Below are positions 1,637 through 36,603 of a DNA stretch of 36,603 nt, piece after piece. Origin of the DNA: a virus; the IMG/VR virus record IMGVR_UViG_2895706988_000001, positions 1-36,603 of that record. One strand, 5' to 3'. Numbering within the stretch: position 1 is the first letter of the stretch; every line of letters begins with the position of its first letter. Under the pieces are notes generated by a model that made no database searches, was not told where the DNA came from, and worked only from the letters and a program-made list of their open reading frames with translations. Made by a program: the position numbers and the translations under genes.

Positions 1637-2302
1637 TTATAAATATCTTTTAATGCTTCTATTAACATAGTTATCTACATTAATATCATACATCATCATG
1701 AAAAATAACTCTTCATCTTCTTCTTTATCTTTACGTTTGAAATATACTTGTCTTGCATGAGAATTTAAATCAGGTATCTCTATATAGTATTCATCATTTA
1801 CTTTAAATATATTTTCTTCTACTTCTTTATAGTATTTTGAAAACTCTTCTTTTATTCTTTTTATTTCATCAGCACGTAGAGCTAACTCAAACTTTTCCAT
1901 TTCAAATAATGCTTCTTCAACTGATTCACCTTTATATAAAGTGTCAACTAACGTATCTTTAACTTTATCATGAACATACATTTCAATTTGTTCACTATTC
2001 TCTTTAATAGCTACATTGTATTTGTTATTAATAAATATTTTTAAATACTTTTCTCCTTCAATTAAATTTTCATTATCTTTTTGTCTATAGCTTAACTCTT
2101 CTTTTACCTTATTGAATAATTCCATTTTCTCCATCTCCTTATATAATTTATATAATTGTTCAGCTTTTACTAAAGTGATGTTATCTAAACTTCTCTCACC
2201 TTTTCTAATTCTATGGATTGTCGATTGATCTACACCGCTCAAAGTCGCGATTTTGTTGCTGGATAAATCGCTGTCTAATAATTTTTGAATATTTTCTCTC
2301 AT
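1637..2302 (-). CDS. HTH DNA-binding protein with uncharacterised about 165-aa C-terminal domain (second gene of post-lysin cassette)
   Basis: 221-aa ORF. The N-terminus SNKIATLSGVDQSTIHRIRKGERSLD is a helix-turn-helix motif. The C-terminal part is acidic/lysine-rich with no recognisable family. Two 60-nt blocks (1801-1860 and 1981-2040) contain 11/60 G+C each. Confidence 0.75.
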   Translation of the reverse strand: MRENIQKLLDSDLSSNKIATLSGVDQSTIHRIRKGERSLDNITLVKAEQLYKLYKEMEKMELFNKVKEELSYRQKDNENLIEGEKYLKIFINNKYNVAIKENSEQIEMYVHDKVKDTLVDTLYKGESVEEALFEMEKFELALRADEIKRIKEEFSKYYKEVEENIFKVNDEYYIEIPDLNSHARQVYFKRKDKEEDEELFFMMMYDINVDNYVNRSIKRYL

Positions 2303-2321
2303 GCTAATTCTCTCCTTTTTA

Positions 2322-2717
2322 TTATGCTACTAAAACTGATTTTGGTGACCACATTTCAATATTTCCGTATTCAGTATCGAATGACACTAATACTGCTTTT
2401 TCTGTTTCTCTAATTACTTTTGAACCTGAACATTCATTTAAAACTGCGTATGCTTCATTTTGAGATAAGTTTTTGCGAATGATCCAAGCAGGAATGCCCT
2501 CAACATTTTGGTCTTTTTTAACTTCGACTTTAGGATAAGTTAAACGAGCTGCTGCACTATAGATAGCTTCAGCACCAAAACGCTTTTTATTGTAAGTTTT
2601 AACTTGTCTCCACACTTCTTTTAAAGCAAGTGATAAAGCGATTGCGTAATCTTCTACGAATTCAACGATTTGCTTAGCGATTTTGTGAGCTGATACCATC
2701 ATTTGTTTTTTAGTCAT
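2322..2717 (-). CDS. Hypothetical protein (first gene of post-lysin cassette)
   Basis: ATG at 2717 is preceded by AGGAG. The ORF-track start at 2726 is a TTG. 131 aa, no family recognised. Confidence 0.75.
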   Translation of the reverse strand: MTKKQMMVSAHKIAKQIVEFVEDYAIALSLALKEVWRQVKTYNKKRFGAEAIYSAAARLTYPKVEVKKDQNVEGIPAWIIRKNLSQNEAYAVLNECSGSKVIRETEKAVLVSFDTEYGNIEMWSPKSVLVA

Positions 2718-2817: not shown

Positions 2818-2830
2818 ATTATTTCAGACA

Positions 2831-2876
2831 AATAAAAAAGACACTGTACCTAGTCTAAAAAGACGTATACAGTGCC
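2831..2876 (-). terminator. Second terminator-like hairpin after the late operon
   Basis: 7-bp stem cactgta/tacagtg (2842-2848 / 2868-2874) with a structured 19-nt loop. The minus-strand RNA continues CUUUUUUAUUU. Confidence 0.5.
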
Positions 2877-2890
2877 TATTTCTAAAAGAT

Positions 2891-2991
2891 TCATAGCGCT
2901 AAAACTAAGACTACTACAAAAAAGTAAGCCTTAAAAATTCGCTTCATTCTAAATAAATCATAATGCTAAAACTAATACCACTACAAAAAAG
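2891..2991. repeat. Two 34-bp direct repeats (2891-2924, 2958-2991), 30/34 identical, 67-bp period
   Basis: tcatagcgctaaaactaagactactacaaaaaag versus tcataatgctaaaactaataccactacaaaaaag. Non-coding, between two terminators. Confidence 0.85.
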
Positions 2992-3030
2992 CTACTTATA
3001 ATTTATCATATGATTTATTTTTCTGCAAAT

Positions 3031-3068
3031 AATAAAAGCCCCACACTCATTAATTTGAGTGCAGGGCT
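3031..3068 (-). terminator. Intrinsic terminator of the late/lysis operon
   Basis: 13-bp stem with a 2-nt internal mismatch (3037-3068), immediately after the endolysin stop. The minus-strand RNA continues UUUUAUUAUUU. Confidence 0.75.
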
Positions 3069-3073
3069 ACAAT

Positions 3074-3838
3074 TTACTTAAATACTTTATTCACTTTCAT
3101 TCTTCCTAGCCATATCCAATCGTTTGAGCCTTTTCCTGTAAGATTACCTGTATAAATTCTTCCCCAACCATTGTGGATTTCAAAGATATATACTACATCT
3201 CCAGGCTTTAGTTCATATCCAGCTTTACGATTCCAATTGAAACCTTTAATACGATTACCAGAACGCTTTCTTACTTCTGCTCCTAGGTTATCAATCGTAC
3301 CTGTAACATAAGCAGTTAATGAGCGACCTCTATTGACCGCAGAATTAAATGGTAATGTGACTGTTGAATACTTCGTACTTTTTTGTGGTGCTTTCTTCTT
3401 AATAGAAGTAAATAGCGTTTCGTTTTTATAATTTGGTCTAATAAAGTGGCTGATCCCTGAGCAATCATCCCATCTTAAAGTTGCTGGTGTTCTCGCCTGT
3501 CCGTCCCAATTCTGCTCTAGCACCATACATCCATTTAAATTACCGCTATTGTACACTAAAGCGATATGTCCAAATCTATTATCAAATGCGCCACGAGTAA
3601 AGACTGCTATATCTCCACGTTGTTGTTGGAATGATGGTGTATTTTCATACACTGTAAACTGACCTTTGAAATCGTTATTGATGGCATCGCGCGCATTACC
3701 CCACATTCTAATTCCTGTAAGCCAGTAGACGTAATCTACAGTTAAATCCATGCACTGCATTCCGTATACACCATCGAAGTTTATATATTTGCCAACGTAC
3801 CAATCTATACGATTACTAGCTTCTGAATAAGTTTTCAT
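3074..3838 (-). CDS. Endolysin, N-terminal CHAP peptidase + C-terminal SH3b-like wall-binding domain
   Basis: CHAP signature (Cys in GMQCMDL, His in FGHIALV) and an SH3b-like C-terminus (GDVVYIFEIHNGWGRIY). It lies directly downstream of the holin. Confidence 0.9.
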   Translation of the reverse strand: MKTYSEASNRIDWYVGKYINFDGVYGMQCMDLTVDYVYWLTGIRMWGNARDAINNDFKGQFTVYENTPSFQQQRGDIAVFTRGAFDNRFGHIALVYNSGNLNGCMVLEQNWDGQARTPATLRWDDCSGISHFIRPNYKNETLFTSIKKKAPQKSTKYSTVTLPFNSAVNRGRSLTAYVTGTIDNLGAEVRKRSGNRIKGFNWNRKAGYELKPGDVVYIFEIHNGWGRIYTGNLTGKGSNDWIWLGRMKVNKVFK

Positions 3839-3840
3839 AC

Positions 3841-4092
3841 CTACTTCATCCCTTCATCTTTTAATACTTCTTCTTGTTTTCGTGCTTTTTTTGTGATGAT
3901 ATAGCTGTTCTTATACACTCCATATGCGACTAATCCGAATGGCACTAGCGTGTTTAAAAATACGACTAGCGCATTCACACGATCTGGATTTATCCATTCA
4001 ACTGATAGCCCGTAGCTGTAAAGTAATGTATATAAAGCACCTAACATTCCTCCGAATAAAGCGATGTATTGTTTCAATTTATCTTGTGTCAC
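3841..4092 (-). CDS. Holin
   Basis: 83 aa with two hydrophobic helices and a charged C-terminal tail (KKARKQEEVLKDEGMK). It abuts the endolysin. Confidence 0.85.
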   Translation of the reverse strand: MTQDKLKQYIALFGGMLGALYTLLYSYGLSVEWINPDRVNALVVFLNTLVPFGLVAYGVYKNSYIITKKARKQEEVLKDEGMK

Positions 4093-35075: not shown

Positions 35076-35477
35076 ATGGTTGATAGAGACATGCCTTTAA
35101 AAAAGAAGATATCCTTTAATATTGAAAAGTACAGAAAAGAATTCGGTTGGACCCAGAAAGAATTAGCAGATAAAGCACAAATACCGAAGAGTACTATGTC
35201 CGACTATATTAACTGCAAAACTTTAATTAATGCTGGAAATGTTGAAAAACTAGCTAAAACTTTTAAAGTACAGAAATCTGATATAGATCCTTCTTTTGGA
35301 GATAAAGAAGAAAATAGATACGATATGGTACGTGAACTCGAACAAAAAGGGATTATCATTAATTTCTCAGATTATGAAGGTTTTGAGAGATTATCTGATG
35401 ATGAGAAGATAGAATTCCAAAAGAAAATTGAAGAAGCGGTTCAATTCGAACTTTTTAAGCGCAACAATCAAAAGTAG
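35076..35477 (+). CDS. CI-like XRE-family repressor without S24 autopeptidase domain
   Basis: 133 aa with HTH motif WTQKELADKAQIPKSTMSDYIN. The C-terminus is short and acidic with no Ser/Lys peptidase motif. Confidence 0.85.
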   Translation: MVDRDMPLKKKISFNIEKYRKEFGWTQKELADKAQIPKSTMSDYINCKTLINAGNVEKLAKTFKVQKSDIDPSFGDKEENRYDMVRELEQKGIIINFSDYEGFERLSDDEKIEFQKKIEEAVQFELFKRNNQK

Positions 35478-35492
35478 TAAGGAGATAATCTT

Positions 35493-35918
35493 ATGAGTGT
35501 TAAAGAGATATATTATAATCGAGGGATAAAAAATATAGAAGATTTGAATATTGATAATGTTGCAATGGCCTTTAACATCTCACTTCTCAAAGATTATCCA
35601 TTAGATGTCAGAGTAACATCAAATGATATAGATATTATTATGCTACAAACAAAAGATCCTATATCTATGACAGAGACTTTTTTTCACGAACTAGCTCATG
35701 TTTTGCGGCATGGACATACTCATATAAGTGAGAGTTACAGAAAGTACTGTGAAGGCCAGGCTAATAGACTTATGTATGAATTAGCTATACCTGATTTTAT
35801 GATCGATGAAAACGATATAGATTATAAGCATTTATGTACAAAATTCAAAGTAACCGAAGAATTTGCCCTAAAGAGAGTAGAACAACTAATACATAAAAAT
35901 TTATGGAATTCTGCATAG
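35493..35918 (+). CDS. ImmA/IrrE-family zinc metallopeptidase
   Basis: 141 aa with the HExxH motif FFHELAHVLRH. It lies immediately downstream of the XRE repressor, as in ImmR/ImmA pairs. Confidence 0.85.
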   Translation: MSVKEIYYNRGIKNIEDLNIDNVAMAFNISLLKDYPLDVRVTSNDIDIIMLQTKDPISMTETFFHELAHVLRHGHTHISESYRKYCEGQANRLMYELAIPDFMIDENDIDYKHLCTKFKVTEEFALKRVEQLIHKNLWNSA

Positions 35919-35970
35919 ATACTCGGCTTAATGCCTTTATCATATAAATATAAAAAGGGAGATGTAATAA

Positions 35971-36603
35971 ATGAATTACAAATTACTTACCGGCACTTTA
36001 TTAGCTTCAAGTTTAATTCTTACTGCATGCGGAAGTTCTGAAGAAAATAAAGACGAAAAAAGTGAAGTGAAAAAAGAAAAATCTACAACTGAAAAGGCAA
36101 CTACAGAAAAACCTACAACCGAGAAACCTACTACAGAAAAGCCTACTACAGAGGATCCTACTACAGAAATACCAACAACTGAGCTGCCTACTACAGAAAT
36201 GCCATCAACAGAAGCACCAGTTACTTTTAATGTGAACAACGTGACGTCCAGACAGCAACTAGAAAGTATAATATATAATAATTCAATATCTGAAATGGAT
36301 AAAGCTACTGCTTATAATAGCGCAGTTGACAATGGTGTTATCCCTCAGGGAAATGTTATGGAAGGACCTGCAATAGCTGCTTACGAGAGTTCTTTGAGAG
36401 TTGAATCTGGTGCTGAAAAATCTGTTTATGAATCTAATCCAGATCCAGGTAATCCAAACACAGAAAAATATAATGATTTATTTGAAAATGAGCCTTCTTC
36501 TAATGAACAAGAATCATATCCTTATCCAACTGGTGAATATGATACAAATAGTCCAACATATGAAGAAGATGAAAACGGAAATTGGGTTGAGGTTACAGAA
36601 TAG
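35971..36603 (+). CDS. Prophage lipoprotein with Thr/Glu/Pro-rich tandem repeats
   Basis: 210 aa. A signal peptide with lipobox LTAC (Cys20) is followed by nine 5-aa repeats (TTEKP-like). The stop is the last codon of the window. Confidence 0.85.
   Translation: MNYKLLTGTLLASSLILTACGSSEENKDEKSEVKKEKSTTEKATTEKPTTEKPTTEKPTTEDPTTEIPTTELPTTEMPSTEAPVTFNVNNVTSRQQLESIIYNNSISEMDKATAYNSAVDNGVIPQGNVMEGPAIAAYESSLRVESGAEKSVYESNPDPGNPNTEKYNDLFENEPSSNEQESYPYPTGEYDTNSPTYEEDENGNWVEVTE
36082..36216 (+). repeat. Nine tandem 15-nt repeats (cctactacagaaaag-like) inside the lipoprotein gene
   Basis: Read directly. The units encode STTEK ATTEK PTTEK PTTEK PTTED PTTEI PTTEL PTTEM PSTEA. Confidence 0.9.

Follow-up and report, generated by a model that had tools for sequence, protein, structure and literature searches.

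A probable AcrIIA13/14/15-type anti-CRISPR operon at the lysin end of a siphovirus prophage in Macrococcus

AcrIIA13, AcrIIA14 and AcrIIA15 are anti-CRISPR (Acr) proteins that share an N-terminal domain, while their divergent C-terminal domains bear the inhibition of SauCas9, for which the N-terminal domain is dispensable; all three N-terminal domains bind inverted repeats in the promoter (PMC7104187). The N-terminal domain of AcrIIA15 dimerises, binds the inverted repeats IR1 (upstream of the −35 element) and IR2 (between −35 and −10) and represses the promoter in vivo, and the C-terminal domain mimics protospacer-adjacent motif (PAM) DNA on Cas9 (PMC10901769). The cited precedent for such a bifunctional autorepressor-inhibitor is AcrIIA1 (PMC7104187, PMC10901769). 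Upstream of AcrIIA13 lies another gene, GF5 gene 1, and its wide distribution made it the seed for finding AcrIIA14 and AcrIIA15 (PMC7104187; bioRxiv supplement). In this work, we have analysed two adjacent genes, gene 1 and gene 2, in the virus record IMGVR_UViG_2895706988_000001 (36,603 nucleotides (nt), the whole stretch being called the window below). We have found that the pair is quite probably a phage acr operon of the AcrIIA13/14/15 type; the pair lies in a siphovirus prophage of Macrococcus, at the lysin-proximal end. The assignment is based on the homology of the helix-turn-helix (HTH) domain of gene 2, the near-identity and layout of the operators, the co-variation of operator and regulator among loci, the family of gene 1, and the prophage location.

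The late genes of the window are all on the minus strand, as are the features described below unless stated otherwise. Gene 1 (131 amino acids (aa), 2322-2717) starts with an ATG preceded by GGAG at 2728-2731, and the open reading frame (ORF) of gene 2 (221 aa, 1637-2302) begins 19 nt downstream of it. Upstream of the pair lies the endolysin gene (3074-3838), in which domain and profile searches detect CHAP and SH3b domains. The G+C content is 25.5% in gene 2 and drops to 23.5% beyond its codon 60, compared with 34.1% in gene 1, 37.4% in the lysin gene and 34.5% in the window. An earlier inspection of the letters alone, the sequence-only reading, had correctly seen the two ORFs, the N-terminal HTH of gene 2, its extreme AT-richness and the placement after the endolysin. 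Its description of a self-contained, separately promoted two-gene accessory unit holds as well: the pair is a bicistronic module with its own promoter, inside a prophage and in the slot between lysin and attachment site. Overall, what it observed was largely real though partly mis-described, and its interpretation is supported in part. It had placed neither gene in any family, and here the picture has changed, as gene 1 belongs to the phrog_12732/GF5 gene 1 family and gene 2 carries the HTH domain of AcrIIA13-15.

The HTH domain occupies residues 1-61 of gene 2 (2120-2302) and was identified as AcrIIA13-15-type by phmmer, profile search and Foldseek. Against AcrIIA15 in the PDB (8jfr_B) it gives E=9e-13 with phmmer and E=3e-18 with the family profile, Aca11 being the next-best match; to AcrIIA13 it is 47% identical over 60 residues. 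The AlphaFold2 (AF2) model of the domain (pLDDT ~90) superposes on the DNA-bound N-terminal domain of AcrIIA15 (8jfr) with a TM-score of 0.93-0.95, a root-mean-square deviation of 0.5 A and 51% identity in Foldseek. When aligned by eye to the residues described in PMC10901769, the domain keeps the dimerisation residues R2 and L44 and the DNA-contact residues Q26 and T43, while K31 is replaced by R. From this homology we infer that the HTH acts as an autorepressor, that is, with the function of an anti-CRISPR-associated (Aca) protein.

The promoter agrees with this assignment in its details. Consensus scan, repeat scan and cross-locus comparison place the acr promoter with its two operators at 2766-2818. 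It consists of a −35 element TTGACT (2794-2789), a 17-nt spacer and a −10 element TAATAT (2771-2766). It was first described as near-consensus; the promoter is indeed present, but with a consensus score of 9/12 it is near consensus only at −35. IR1, TTATGACAAAAGTCATAA, lies at 2818-2801 upstream of −35, and IR2, TATGACAAATGTCATA, at 2788-2773 in the spacer between −35 and −10, a placement that agrees with the description of AcrIIA15 (PMC10901769). The minus strand of the window reads ATAATTATGACAAAAGTCATAAAAAGTGTTGACTTATGACAAATGTCATAGTAATATA here, and the published substrate of the AcrIIA15-promoter electrophoretic mobility shift assay reads ATAATTATGACAAATGTCATAGAAAAGCGTTGACTTATGACGAACGTCATAATATA; the TATGAC...GTCATA half-sites, the −35 element and the geometry are identical in the two.

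We have further compared the operators of loci carrying this HTH gene, namely the window, the related phage locus L025, L026, M. canis L004, S. saprophyticus L005/6 and the AcrIIA13 loci of S. schleiferi (L039-41). All of them keep the promoter layout and the TATGAC...GTCATA spacer palindrome, regardless of which gene lies upstream, and most also retain a copy of the palindrome upstream of −35. By contrast, L023, with a gene 1 that is 94% identical but with no HTH gene, has a different spacer palindrome, and L008, with a divergent ribbon-helix-helix (RHH) gene, has yet another. Judged from these alignments, the operator palindrome varies with the regulator rather than with the cargo. This co-variation supports the view that the gene 2 protein would autoregulate its operon through IR1 and IR2.

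Among these loci, M. canis L004 (contig JAGUUC010000008.1, 4412-6741) has the same promoter, the same IR pair and an HTH gene (P0003) with an AcrIIA15-like tail. Its contig is plasmid-like, with Rep3 and ParA genes and iterons, and its first gene is an unrelated 74-aa ORF. Since the cassette is found on such a replicon, the acr platform is not confined to prophages.

Gene 1 matches phrog_12732 over its full length (E=7e-33), and this family is the same as the 'Rorf148-like' and 'GF5 gene 1' family. We have collected 69 homologues with 42-93% identity in Macrococcus, Staphylococcus, Lacticaseibacillus and other genera; between phages of lactobacilli and those of the staphylococcal family the identity is still ~60%. 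Compared with GF5 gene 1 itself (WP_050337584.1), the C-terminal domain is 51% identical in BLASTP (E=1e-14), and hhalign gives a probability of 98.7% covering both domains. The same protein, as ORF L041:4013-4486, had already come up as a relative of gene 1 in the viral scan. On this homology, the pair in the window is the Macrococcus counterpart of the "GF5 gene 1 - AcrIIA13" operon.

In the AF2 model of gene 1 (pLDDT 88.5), a basic N-terminal domain of three helices precedes an alpha/beta C-terminal domain, which has the motif IPAWI..KN...RETEKA.L....W.PKSVL. This C-terminal domain is found again in numerous phage proteins, where its fusion partner is often a HeH/SAP-like tail or a prohead protease. 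The model has no significant structure match in the PDB, where a sequence profile of gene 1 also finds nothing, and its sole match in BFVD is a protein in which a prohead protease is joined to a gene-1-like domain. The protein is basic, with an isoelectric point (pI) of 9.3, and a DNA-binding or second anti-defence role is possible for it. With GF5 gene 1, phrog_12732 and phig1e Rorf148 it shares the N-terminal helical motif, the IPAWI...RETEKA...W.PKSVL domain, and the position right after the promoter and before a variable gene. Unlike GF5 gene 1 of S. schleiferi, it is the 131-aa form that lacks the HeH-like C-terminal tail.

A survey of the same slot in related phages has shown that gene 1 recurs after the lysin together with a variable second gene. 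In Lrm1, phig1e, TMW 1.706 P2 and S. pseudintermedius prophages it lies after the lysin and before the attachment site or integrase, and the gene following it encodes 110-240 aa; the cassette is also post-lysin in the Lactobacillus phage LFP01, as in Lrm1, phig1e and TMW 1.706 P2. Other small genes were seen in this neighbourhood. Small, very acidic proteins with a SYDYE.L..EL.ADI.EG-like motif (L023/L024 3602-3871, L026 5157-5719, L033-L035 ~3450-3890, L037 5008-5295) recur in the slot between lysin and attachment site beside gene 1 homologues in several genera, and they are possibly extra anti-defence cargo. In L023/L024 (4419-6620) and L035 (4422-7832), gene 1 is followed by a ~200-aa protein, a small ETEKA/W.PKS-like protein and a P-loop (GTGKT) helicase-like protein, after which L035 additionally has a PAPS-reductase-like protein.

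Compared with the AcrIIA13/14/15 operons (PMC7104187, PMC10901769; PDB 8jfo, 8jfr, 8jfu), the locus thus has an HTH of the same fold with 47-51% identity, the same operator half-sites at the same places relative to −35 and −10, an acidic and variable second domain, a partner of the GF5 gene 1 family, and a location in a prophage or mobile element. It differs in its host genus, Macrococcus, and in the C-terminal domain of gene 2 (160 aa), which is unrelated to the three known inhibitor domains and is a candidate inhibitor by position. The Listeria AcrIIA1 locus is likewise prophage-borne. There too the HTH at the N-terminus uses a palindrome to repress the acr promoter, and Cas9 is the target of the C-terminal domain, but the HTH is of a different family with different operators, and PDB searches with our sequences gave no match to AcrIIA1.

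Based on this comparison, the operon may work as follows. The sigma-70-type promoter would drive gene 1 and gene 2 as a single transcript, firing upon infection. The gene 2 protein would then dimerise through its HTH and bind IR1 and IR2, which, by homology with the known operons, would close the promoter after the initial burst and keep a low autoregulated level in the lysogen. Such a low expression in the lysogen would shield the prophage from self-targeting. Judged from its position, the C-terminal domain would block a host immune effector, the likeliest being the type II Cas9 of Macrococcus or related Staphylococcaceae. The sequence-only reading had instead expected cargo that benefits the lysogen (toxin, immune-evasion or defence genes); the comparisons point to a phage counter-defence operon of the anti-CRISPR type in place of these.

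The C-terminal domain (residues 62-221 and the stop codon, 1637-2119) is acidic and rich in K and E, with a pI of 4.86 (computed for residues 61-221). Relatives of gene 2 exist for residues 1-60 only. For its C-terminal ~160-164 residues there is no homologue among 1.84 billion representative proteins, nor was one of the domain found in a search of 5.8e9 sequences, and the domain has no similarity to the other C-terminal domains of the HTH family. Its AF2 model is of low confidence and largely helical. We regard the domain as a candidate new Cas9 inhibitor with the chances about evenly balanced, since the proposal comes only from its position, which matches that of the inhibitor domains in AcrIIA13/14/15.

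Several points weigh against the anti-CRISPR assignment. The domain has no detectable relative and a poorly predicted structure, and it could serve for oligomerisation or sensing only. In some family members, from phages of S. aureus and S. epidermidis, the tail is only 47-48 aa long, so the HTH can exist as a plain regulator. Moreover, among five macrococcal genomes only M. bohemicus has a type II system (PMC6008420), and the gene 1 relative GF5 gene 1 gave no inhibition of SauCas9 when tested (bioRxiv supplement). As to the short-tailed homologues, those in S. aureus phage phi2 (L061, 3055-3824) and S. epidermidis phage BE20 (L063, 3108-3827) are preceded by tiny ORFs; among these, a hydrophobic peptide of 32 aa, MKINIRKSTKKEFVTGLIAWTVIIVLILVVFK, overlaps the HTH start. 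BE20 has a distinct spacer palindrome, TATGCCGAAAGGCATA, and in phi2 the scan for a spacer palindrome found none.

There is a rather improbable, though not negligible, alternative: gene 2 would be only a regulator, an Aca protein with a dimerisation or ligand-sensing tail, and the effector would be gene 1 or an RNA encoded upstream, or else the C-terminal domain would hit a defence other than CRISPR, such as restriction-modification. Short-tailed homologues and an orphan domain with a low-confidence helical model are what it would expect, and classical acr-aca operons do place the effector gene upstream of the HTH gene. At the Javan584 locus, moreover, the active inhibitor is an RNA and not the neighbouring Acr-like protein (among 10.64898/2026.06.01.729453, 10.64898/2026.06.03.729762, PMC10651486 and 10.1101/2024.10.29.618823). 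On the other hand, the three characterised relatives all inhibit Cas9 via the variable C-terminal domain and can dispense with the N-terminal one for it. As for gene 1 being the effector, the negative result with GF5 gene 1 argues against it, and so does the identity of gene 1 across genera, which is unusual for an inhibitor in an arms race.

What the acr assignment does account for is the way in which the partners are exchanged. In the sampled loci the HTH carries at least seven unrelated, mostly acidic tails (those of AcrIIA13, AcrIIA14, AcrIIA15, S. saprophyticus, a lactobacillus, L025/P0002 and the window itself). The earlier impression, in which a variable second domain is joined to a conserved HTH, was correct. 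In S. pseudintermedius, the AcrIIA15-type C-terminal domain is even encoded by a free-standing 111-aa gene after the gene 1 homologue. Conversely, copies of gene 1 that are 92-94% identical precede three unrelated genes, namely the 221-aa gene of the window, a 150-aa gene in L025 and a 212-aa gene with no HTH in L023/24, and the same HTH also follows unrelated genes of 72-74 aa in S. saprophyticus prophages and in M. canis L004. This pattern is consistent with an acr locus that keeps its regulatory platform and exchanges the inhibitor modules placed on it.

The same exchange bears on whether the pair could be a toxin-antitoxin or abortive-infection module, with gene 1 as toxin and gene 2 as HTH antitoxin and autorepressor, which would protect the lysogen or stabilise the prophage. 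As in HigBA-type modules, a small first gene precedes an HTH gene under an autoregulated palindromic operator. The 19-nt spacing, the basic gene 1 beside the acidic tail of gene 2 (pI 4.9), and weak HTH matches to Xre antitoxins and C proteins are also in line with such a module. But these matches are below threshold, neither gene has a significant match to any toxin, antitoxin or defence family in Pfam, PADLOC or NCBIfam, and the HTH is specifically that of AcrIIA13-15. Above all, since the partners are freely exchanged between loci, toxin and antitoxin do not co-vary as a cognate pair should, and we therefore hold this explanation to be very unlikely.

Also extremely unlikely is a sensor-repressor of the Stl kind, in which the C-terminal domain would sense an incoming phage by binding one of its proteins and thereby derepress gene 1 as an effector protecting the lysogen. 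A conserved HTH with swapped C-terminal domains does resemble the logic of Stl in S. aureus pathogenicity islands (SaPI), and the cassette lies in the slot used for lysogenic conversion; an Stl-type or abortive-infection regulator had in fact been proposed from the letters alone. However, the C-terminal domain of AcrIIA15 binds Cas9 with its single-guide RNA (sgRNA), not phage proteins, while the N-terminal domain stays on the DNA (PMC10901769). The same cassette is present on a plasmid-like replicon, C-terminal domains exist as free-standing genes with no HTH, and the HTH here is an AcrIIA13-15 autorepressor domain with its cognate operators.

If the C-terminal domain does inhibit Cas9 as the acr assignment suggests, it would be a new anti-CRISPR family for the compact SauCas9-like genome-editing nucleases, and the AcrIIA13-15 platform would be extended to Macrococcus. 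In addition, the combination of HTH, operator pair and gene 1 offers a search handle for many further variable domains in Staphylococcus, Macrococcus and lactobacilli.

The location of the pair was derived from the host DNA at the window end. The flanking gene with a bPH domain (1-471) shares 92% identity with its counterpart in Macrococcus psychrotolerans and 88% with the one in M. caseolyticus, which places the host in Macrococcus and excludes Staphylococcus, the setting assumed before. In the empty sites of these two species, tRNA-Asn and tRNA-Ser(GCT) are followed by ~208 nt and then tRNA-Met. The window is collinear with the empty site from tRNA-Met to 1490 and diverges within the final 11 nt of tRNA-Ser. 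Such a break indicates, from the alignment, that the prophage is integrated into the 3' end of tRNA-Ser(GCT), with the attachment-site core CTCCATCTCCG at 1480-1490 as the junction of prophage and host. Gene 1 and gene 2 are thus within the prophage, and gene 2 ends 146 bp from the prophage end.

None of ten prophage-free Macrococcus species has the pair at this tRNA-Ser locus. The loci L018 and L020, with longer spacers between tRNA-Ser and tRNA-Met (the two species with ORFs listed), contain a 306-aa chromosomal ORF, which we take to be a ketopantoate-reductase-like enzyme from its sequence, and no gene pair. Megablast found no near-identical DNA in known phages.

The hairpin that had been read as the terminator of the pair itself (1441-1474) turned out to be host DNA. 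The hairpin scan locates it at 1449-1474, where it is the terminator following tRNA-Ser(GCT), and it is conserved in the prophage-free M. psychrotolerans and M. caseolyticus; it would nevertheless halt read-through from the acr operon too. The host promoter of an eight-tRNA operon (1275-1345; TTGCAT, 17 nt, TATATT, with an A/T-rich upstream region), also conserved in these two species, lies beyond it, and read-through from the prophage end would reach that operon unless the hairpin stops transcription.

Between gene 2 and the attachment core, the phage DNA (1491-1636; sequence reading, repeat scan and empty-site alignment) contains a perfect 22-bp palindrome, ATAACAATATGCATATTGTTAT, at 1506-1527 (arms ATAACAATATG and CATATTGTTAT), and ATTGACCA is present twice at 1533-1553. 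The palindrome and the duplicated motif may be arm-binding sites of a recombinase or integrase, or sites for a recombination directionality factor or excisionase.

Upstream of the acr promoter we have found a second element, an insert at 2826-3028 whose end is 8 bp upstream of IR1. It follows terminator T1 (3037-3068), a strong hairpin with a 13-pair stem and 7 G-C pairs followed by TTTTATTATTT, which closes the late (lysis) operon and is conserved in L025. In this related phage the insert is missing, and a single terminator is directly followed by IR1, with no repeat units. A second hairpin with a T-run, GGCACTGTA...TACAGTGTC at 2835-2881, belongs to terminator T2 (2826-2881, from inverted repeat I22 and RNA folding), which would end a small RNA made from the insert. 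The two hairpins of the tandem terminators previously proposed are therefore real, but the stretch between them holds two units resembling CRISPR repeats.

These units form a 45-nt direct repeat with 84% identity and a period of 67 nt. Each copy has a 19-nt segment, CTTTTTTGTAGTRGTMTTA, followed by a repeat-like part, GTTTTAGCATTATGATTTATTTAGAATGAAGCGAAT in unit A and GTTTTAGCGCTATGAATCTTTTAGAA in unit B. Unit A (2936-2991) comprises the 19-nt guide-like CTTTTTTGTAGTGGTATTA (2991-2973) and the 37-nt repeat-like GTTTTAGCATTATGATTTATTTAGAATGAAGCGAATT (2972-2936). Then come 30 spacer-like nt (2935-2906), of which the final 19, CTTTTTTGTAGTAGTCTTA, repeat the guide of unit A, and the 5' part of the repeat of unit B (2905-2880), so that spacer and unit B together extend over 2880-2935. 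Towards its 3' end, the repeat of unit B is degenerate and merges into T2. Combined, the two guides read (A/G)CTTTTTTGTAGT(G/A)GT(A/C)TTA. Considered as a phage-borne mini-CRISPR array, the insert has a geometry of 37 and 30 nt that fits a type II array; the conserved 45 nt (19 and 26) are close to the size of a mature type II CRISPR RNA (crRNA).

A putative weak promoter at 3000-3028, read by eye, may transcribe the insert. It has TTGCAG (3028-3023), a 17-nt spacer and TG-n-TAAATT (3008-3000), that is, an extended −10 with TRTG; as the consensus scan did not recover it, it should be weak. Read-through from the late operon is an alternative source of transcription.

The repeat-like parts are closest to type II repeats of related hosts. 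In local alignment with the M. bohemicus type II repeat (reverse complement GTTTTAGAACTATGATCTTTTAGAATGAAGTGAAAC), unit A scores 24 and unit B 19, while the best site elsewhere in the window scores 14 and the maxima of 30 shuffles range over 13-18; that is, units A and B are the two best sites of the window on either strand. By hand count, unit A matches the II-A repeat of S. delphini and S. intermedius, GTTTTAGCACTATGTTTATTTAGAAAGAAGTAAAAC, at ~30/36 positions, and with one gap it matches the M. bohemicus and S. delphini repeats at ~30 positions each. The repeats of S. aureus, S. pyogenes, Listeria, Enterococcus and S. thermophilus gave chance-level scores against the insert.

The predicted duplex energies with the M. 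bohemicus anti-repeat are −39.7 kcal/mol for the native repeat, −32.4 for unit A and −23.8 for unit B, and −18.9 and −15.5 for the repeats of S. delphini and S. aureus. Shuffled units have a mean of about −9 kcal/mol, with a minimum of −22.9 (A) and −18.0 (B).

Searches for further copies or for a target gave little. Rfam detects no trans-activating crRNA (tracrRNA), CRISPR-DR or other family in the insert. Viral pattern scans for the repeat element gave no match or one unrelated iteron array (L064), and the metagenome scan gave four single matches, all by chance. Since neither returned another copy, the element is rare, and these scans revealed no natural array carrying precisely this repeat. 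The 30-nt spacer and the 19-nt guide have no significant target in 50,697 phage records, in the window, or in five Staphylococcus cas9 loci retrieved with a SauCas9 query, all five having S. aureus-type repeats. A tracrRNA-like reading of the plus strand was rejected, since that strand has no nexus, no 3' hairpins and no terminator.

Viral scaRNAs are guide-plus-repeat mimics encoded beside Acr/Aca genes of prophages, which pair with tracrRNA, whereby Cas9 is either sequestered or retargeted to the promoter of its own gene (10.64898/2026.06.01.729453). The insert is like these RNAs in being prophage-encoded beside an Acr/Aca gene and in its predicted pairing with a tracrRNA anti-repeat. More broadly, units of a guide and a repeat similar to the type II repeats of related hosts are shared with the viral scaRNAs and vsgRNAs (10.64898/2026.06.01.729453) and with rAcrIIA1 (10.64898/2026.06.03.729762), and in a general way the insert also resembles Racr (PMC10651486) and Cracr/crlRNA (10.1101/2024.10.29.618823). 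Unlike vsgRNAs, it has no tracrRNA-like half and hence is no sgRNA mimic. Unlike the viral scaRNAs, it has two tandem units, and the candidate RNA is predicted from the sequence; another difference is that the main text of these papers does not cover Staphylococcaceae. We tentatively propose that the insert may be an RNA anti-CRISPR of the crRNA-mimic type. A crRNA-like element adjoining the operon fits an anti-Cas9 locus.

A more elaborate model, which we consider doubtful, is that of a layered anti-Cas9 locus, in which two tandem crRNA mimics would act together with a bifunctional Acr having a wholly new inhibitor domain, and with gene 1 as an anti-defence or acr-accessory factor. The mimics would pair with the host tracrRNA, and would either sequester tracrRNA and Cas9 or redirect Cas9 by the shared 19-nt guide, for example to the cas9 promoter. 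If this is true, they would be the first viral element of the scaRNA/Racr type in Staphylococcaceae, and an active tandem would be an early case of RNA-based subversion of Cas9 alongside a protein Acr. The mechanism of such RNA-based subversion comes from 2026 preprints only, whose main text is on hosts other than Staphylococcaceae.

At the opposite end of the window, we have also observed a lysogeny module on the plus strand (35076-36603); the integrase gene must lie past the window end. The module contains a CI-like repressor, an ImmA-like metalloprotease and a lipoprotein-like gene of 210 aa, for which a role in superinfection exclusion is possible.

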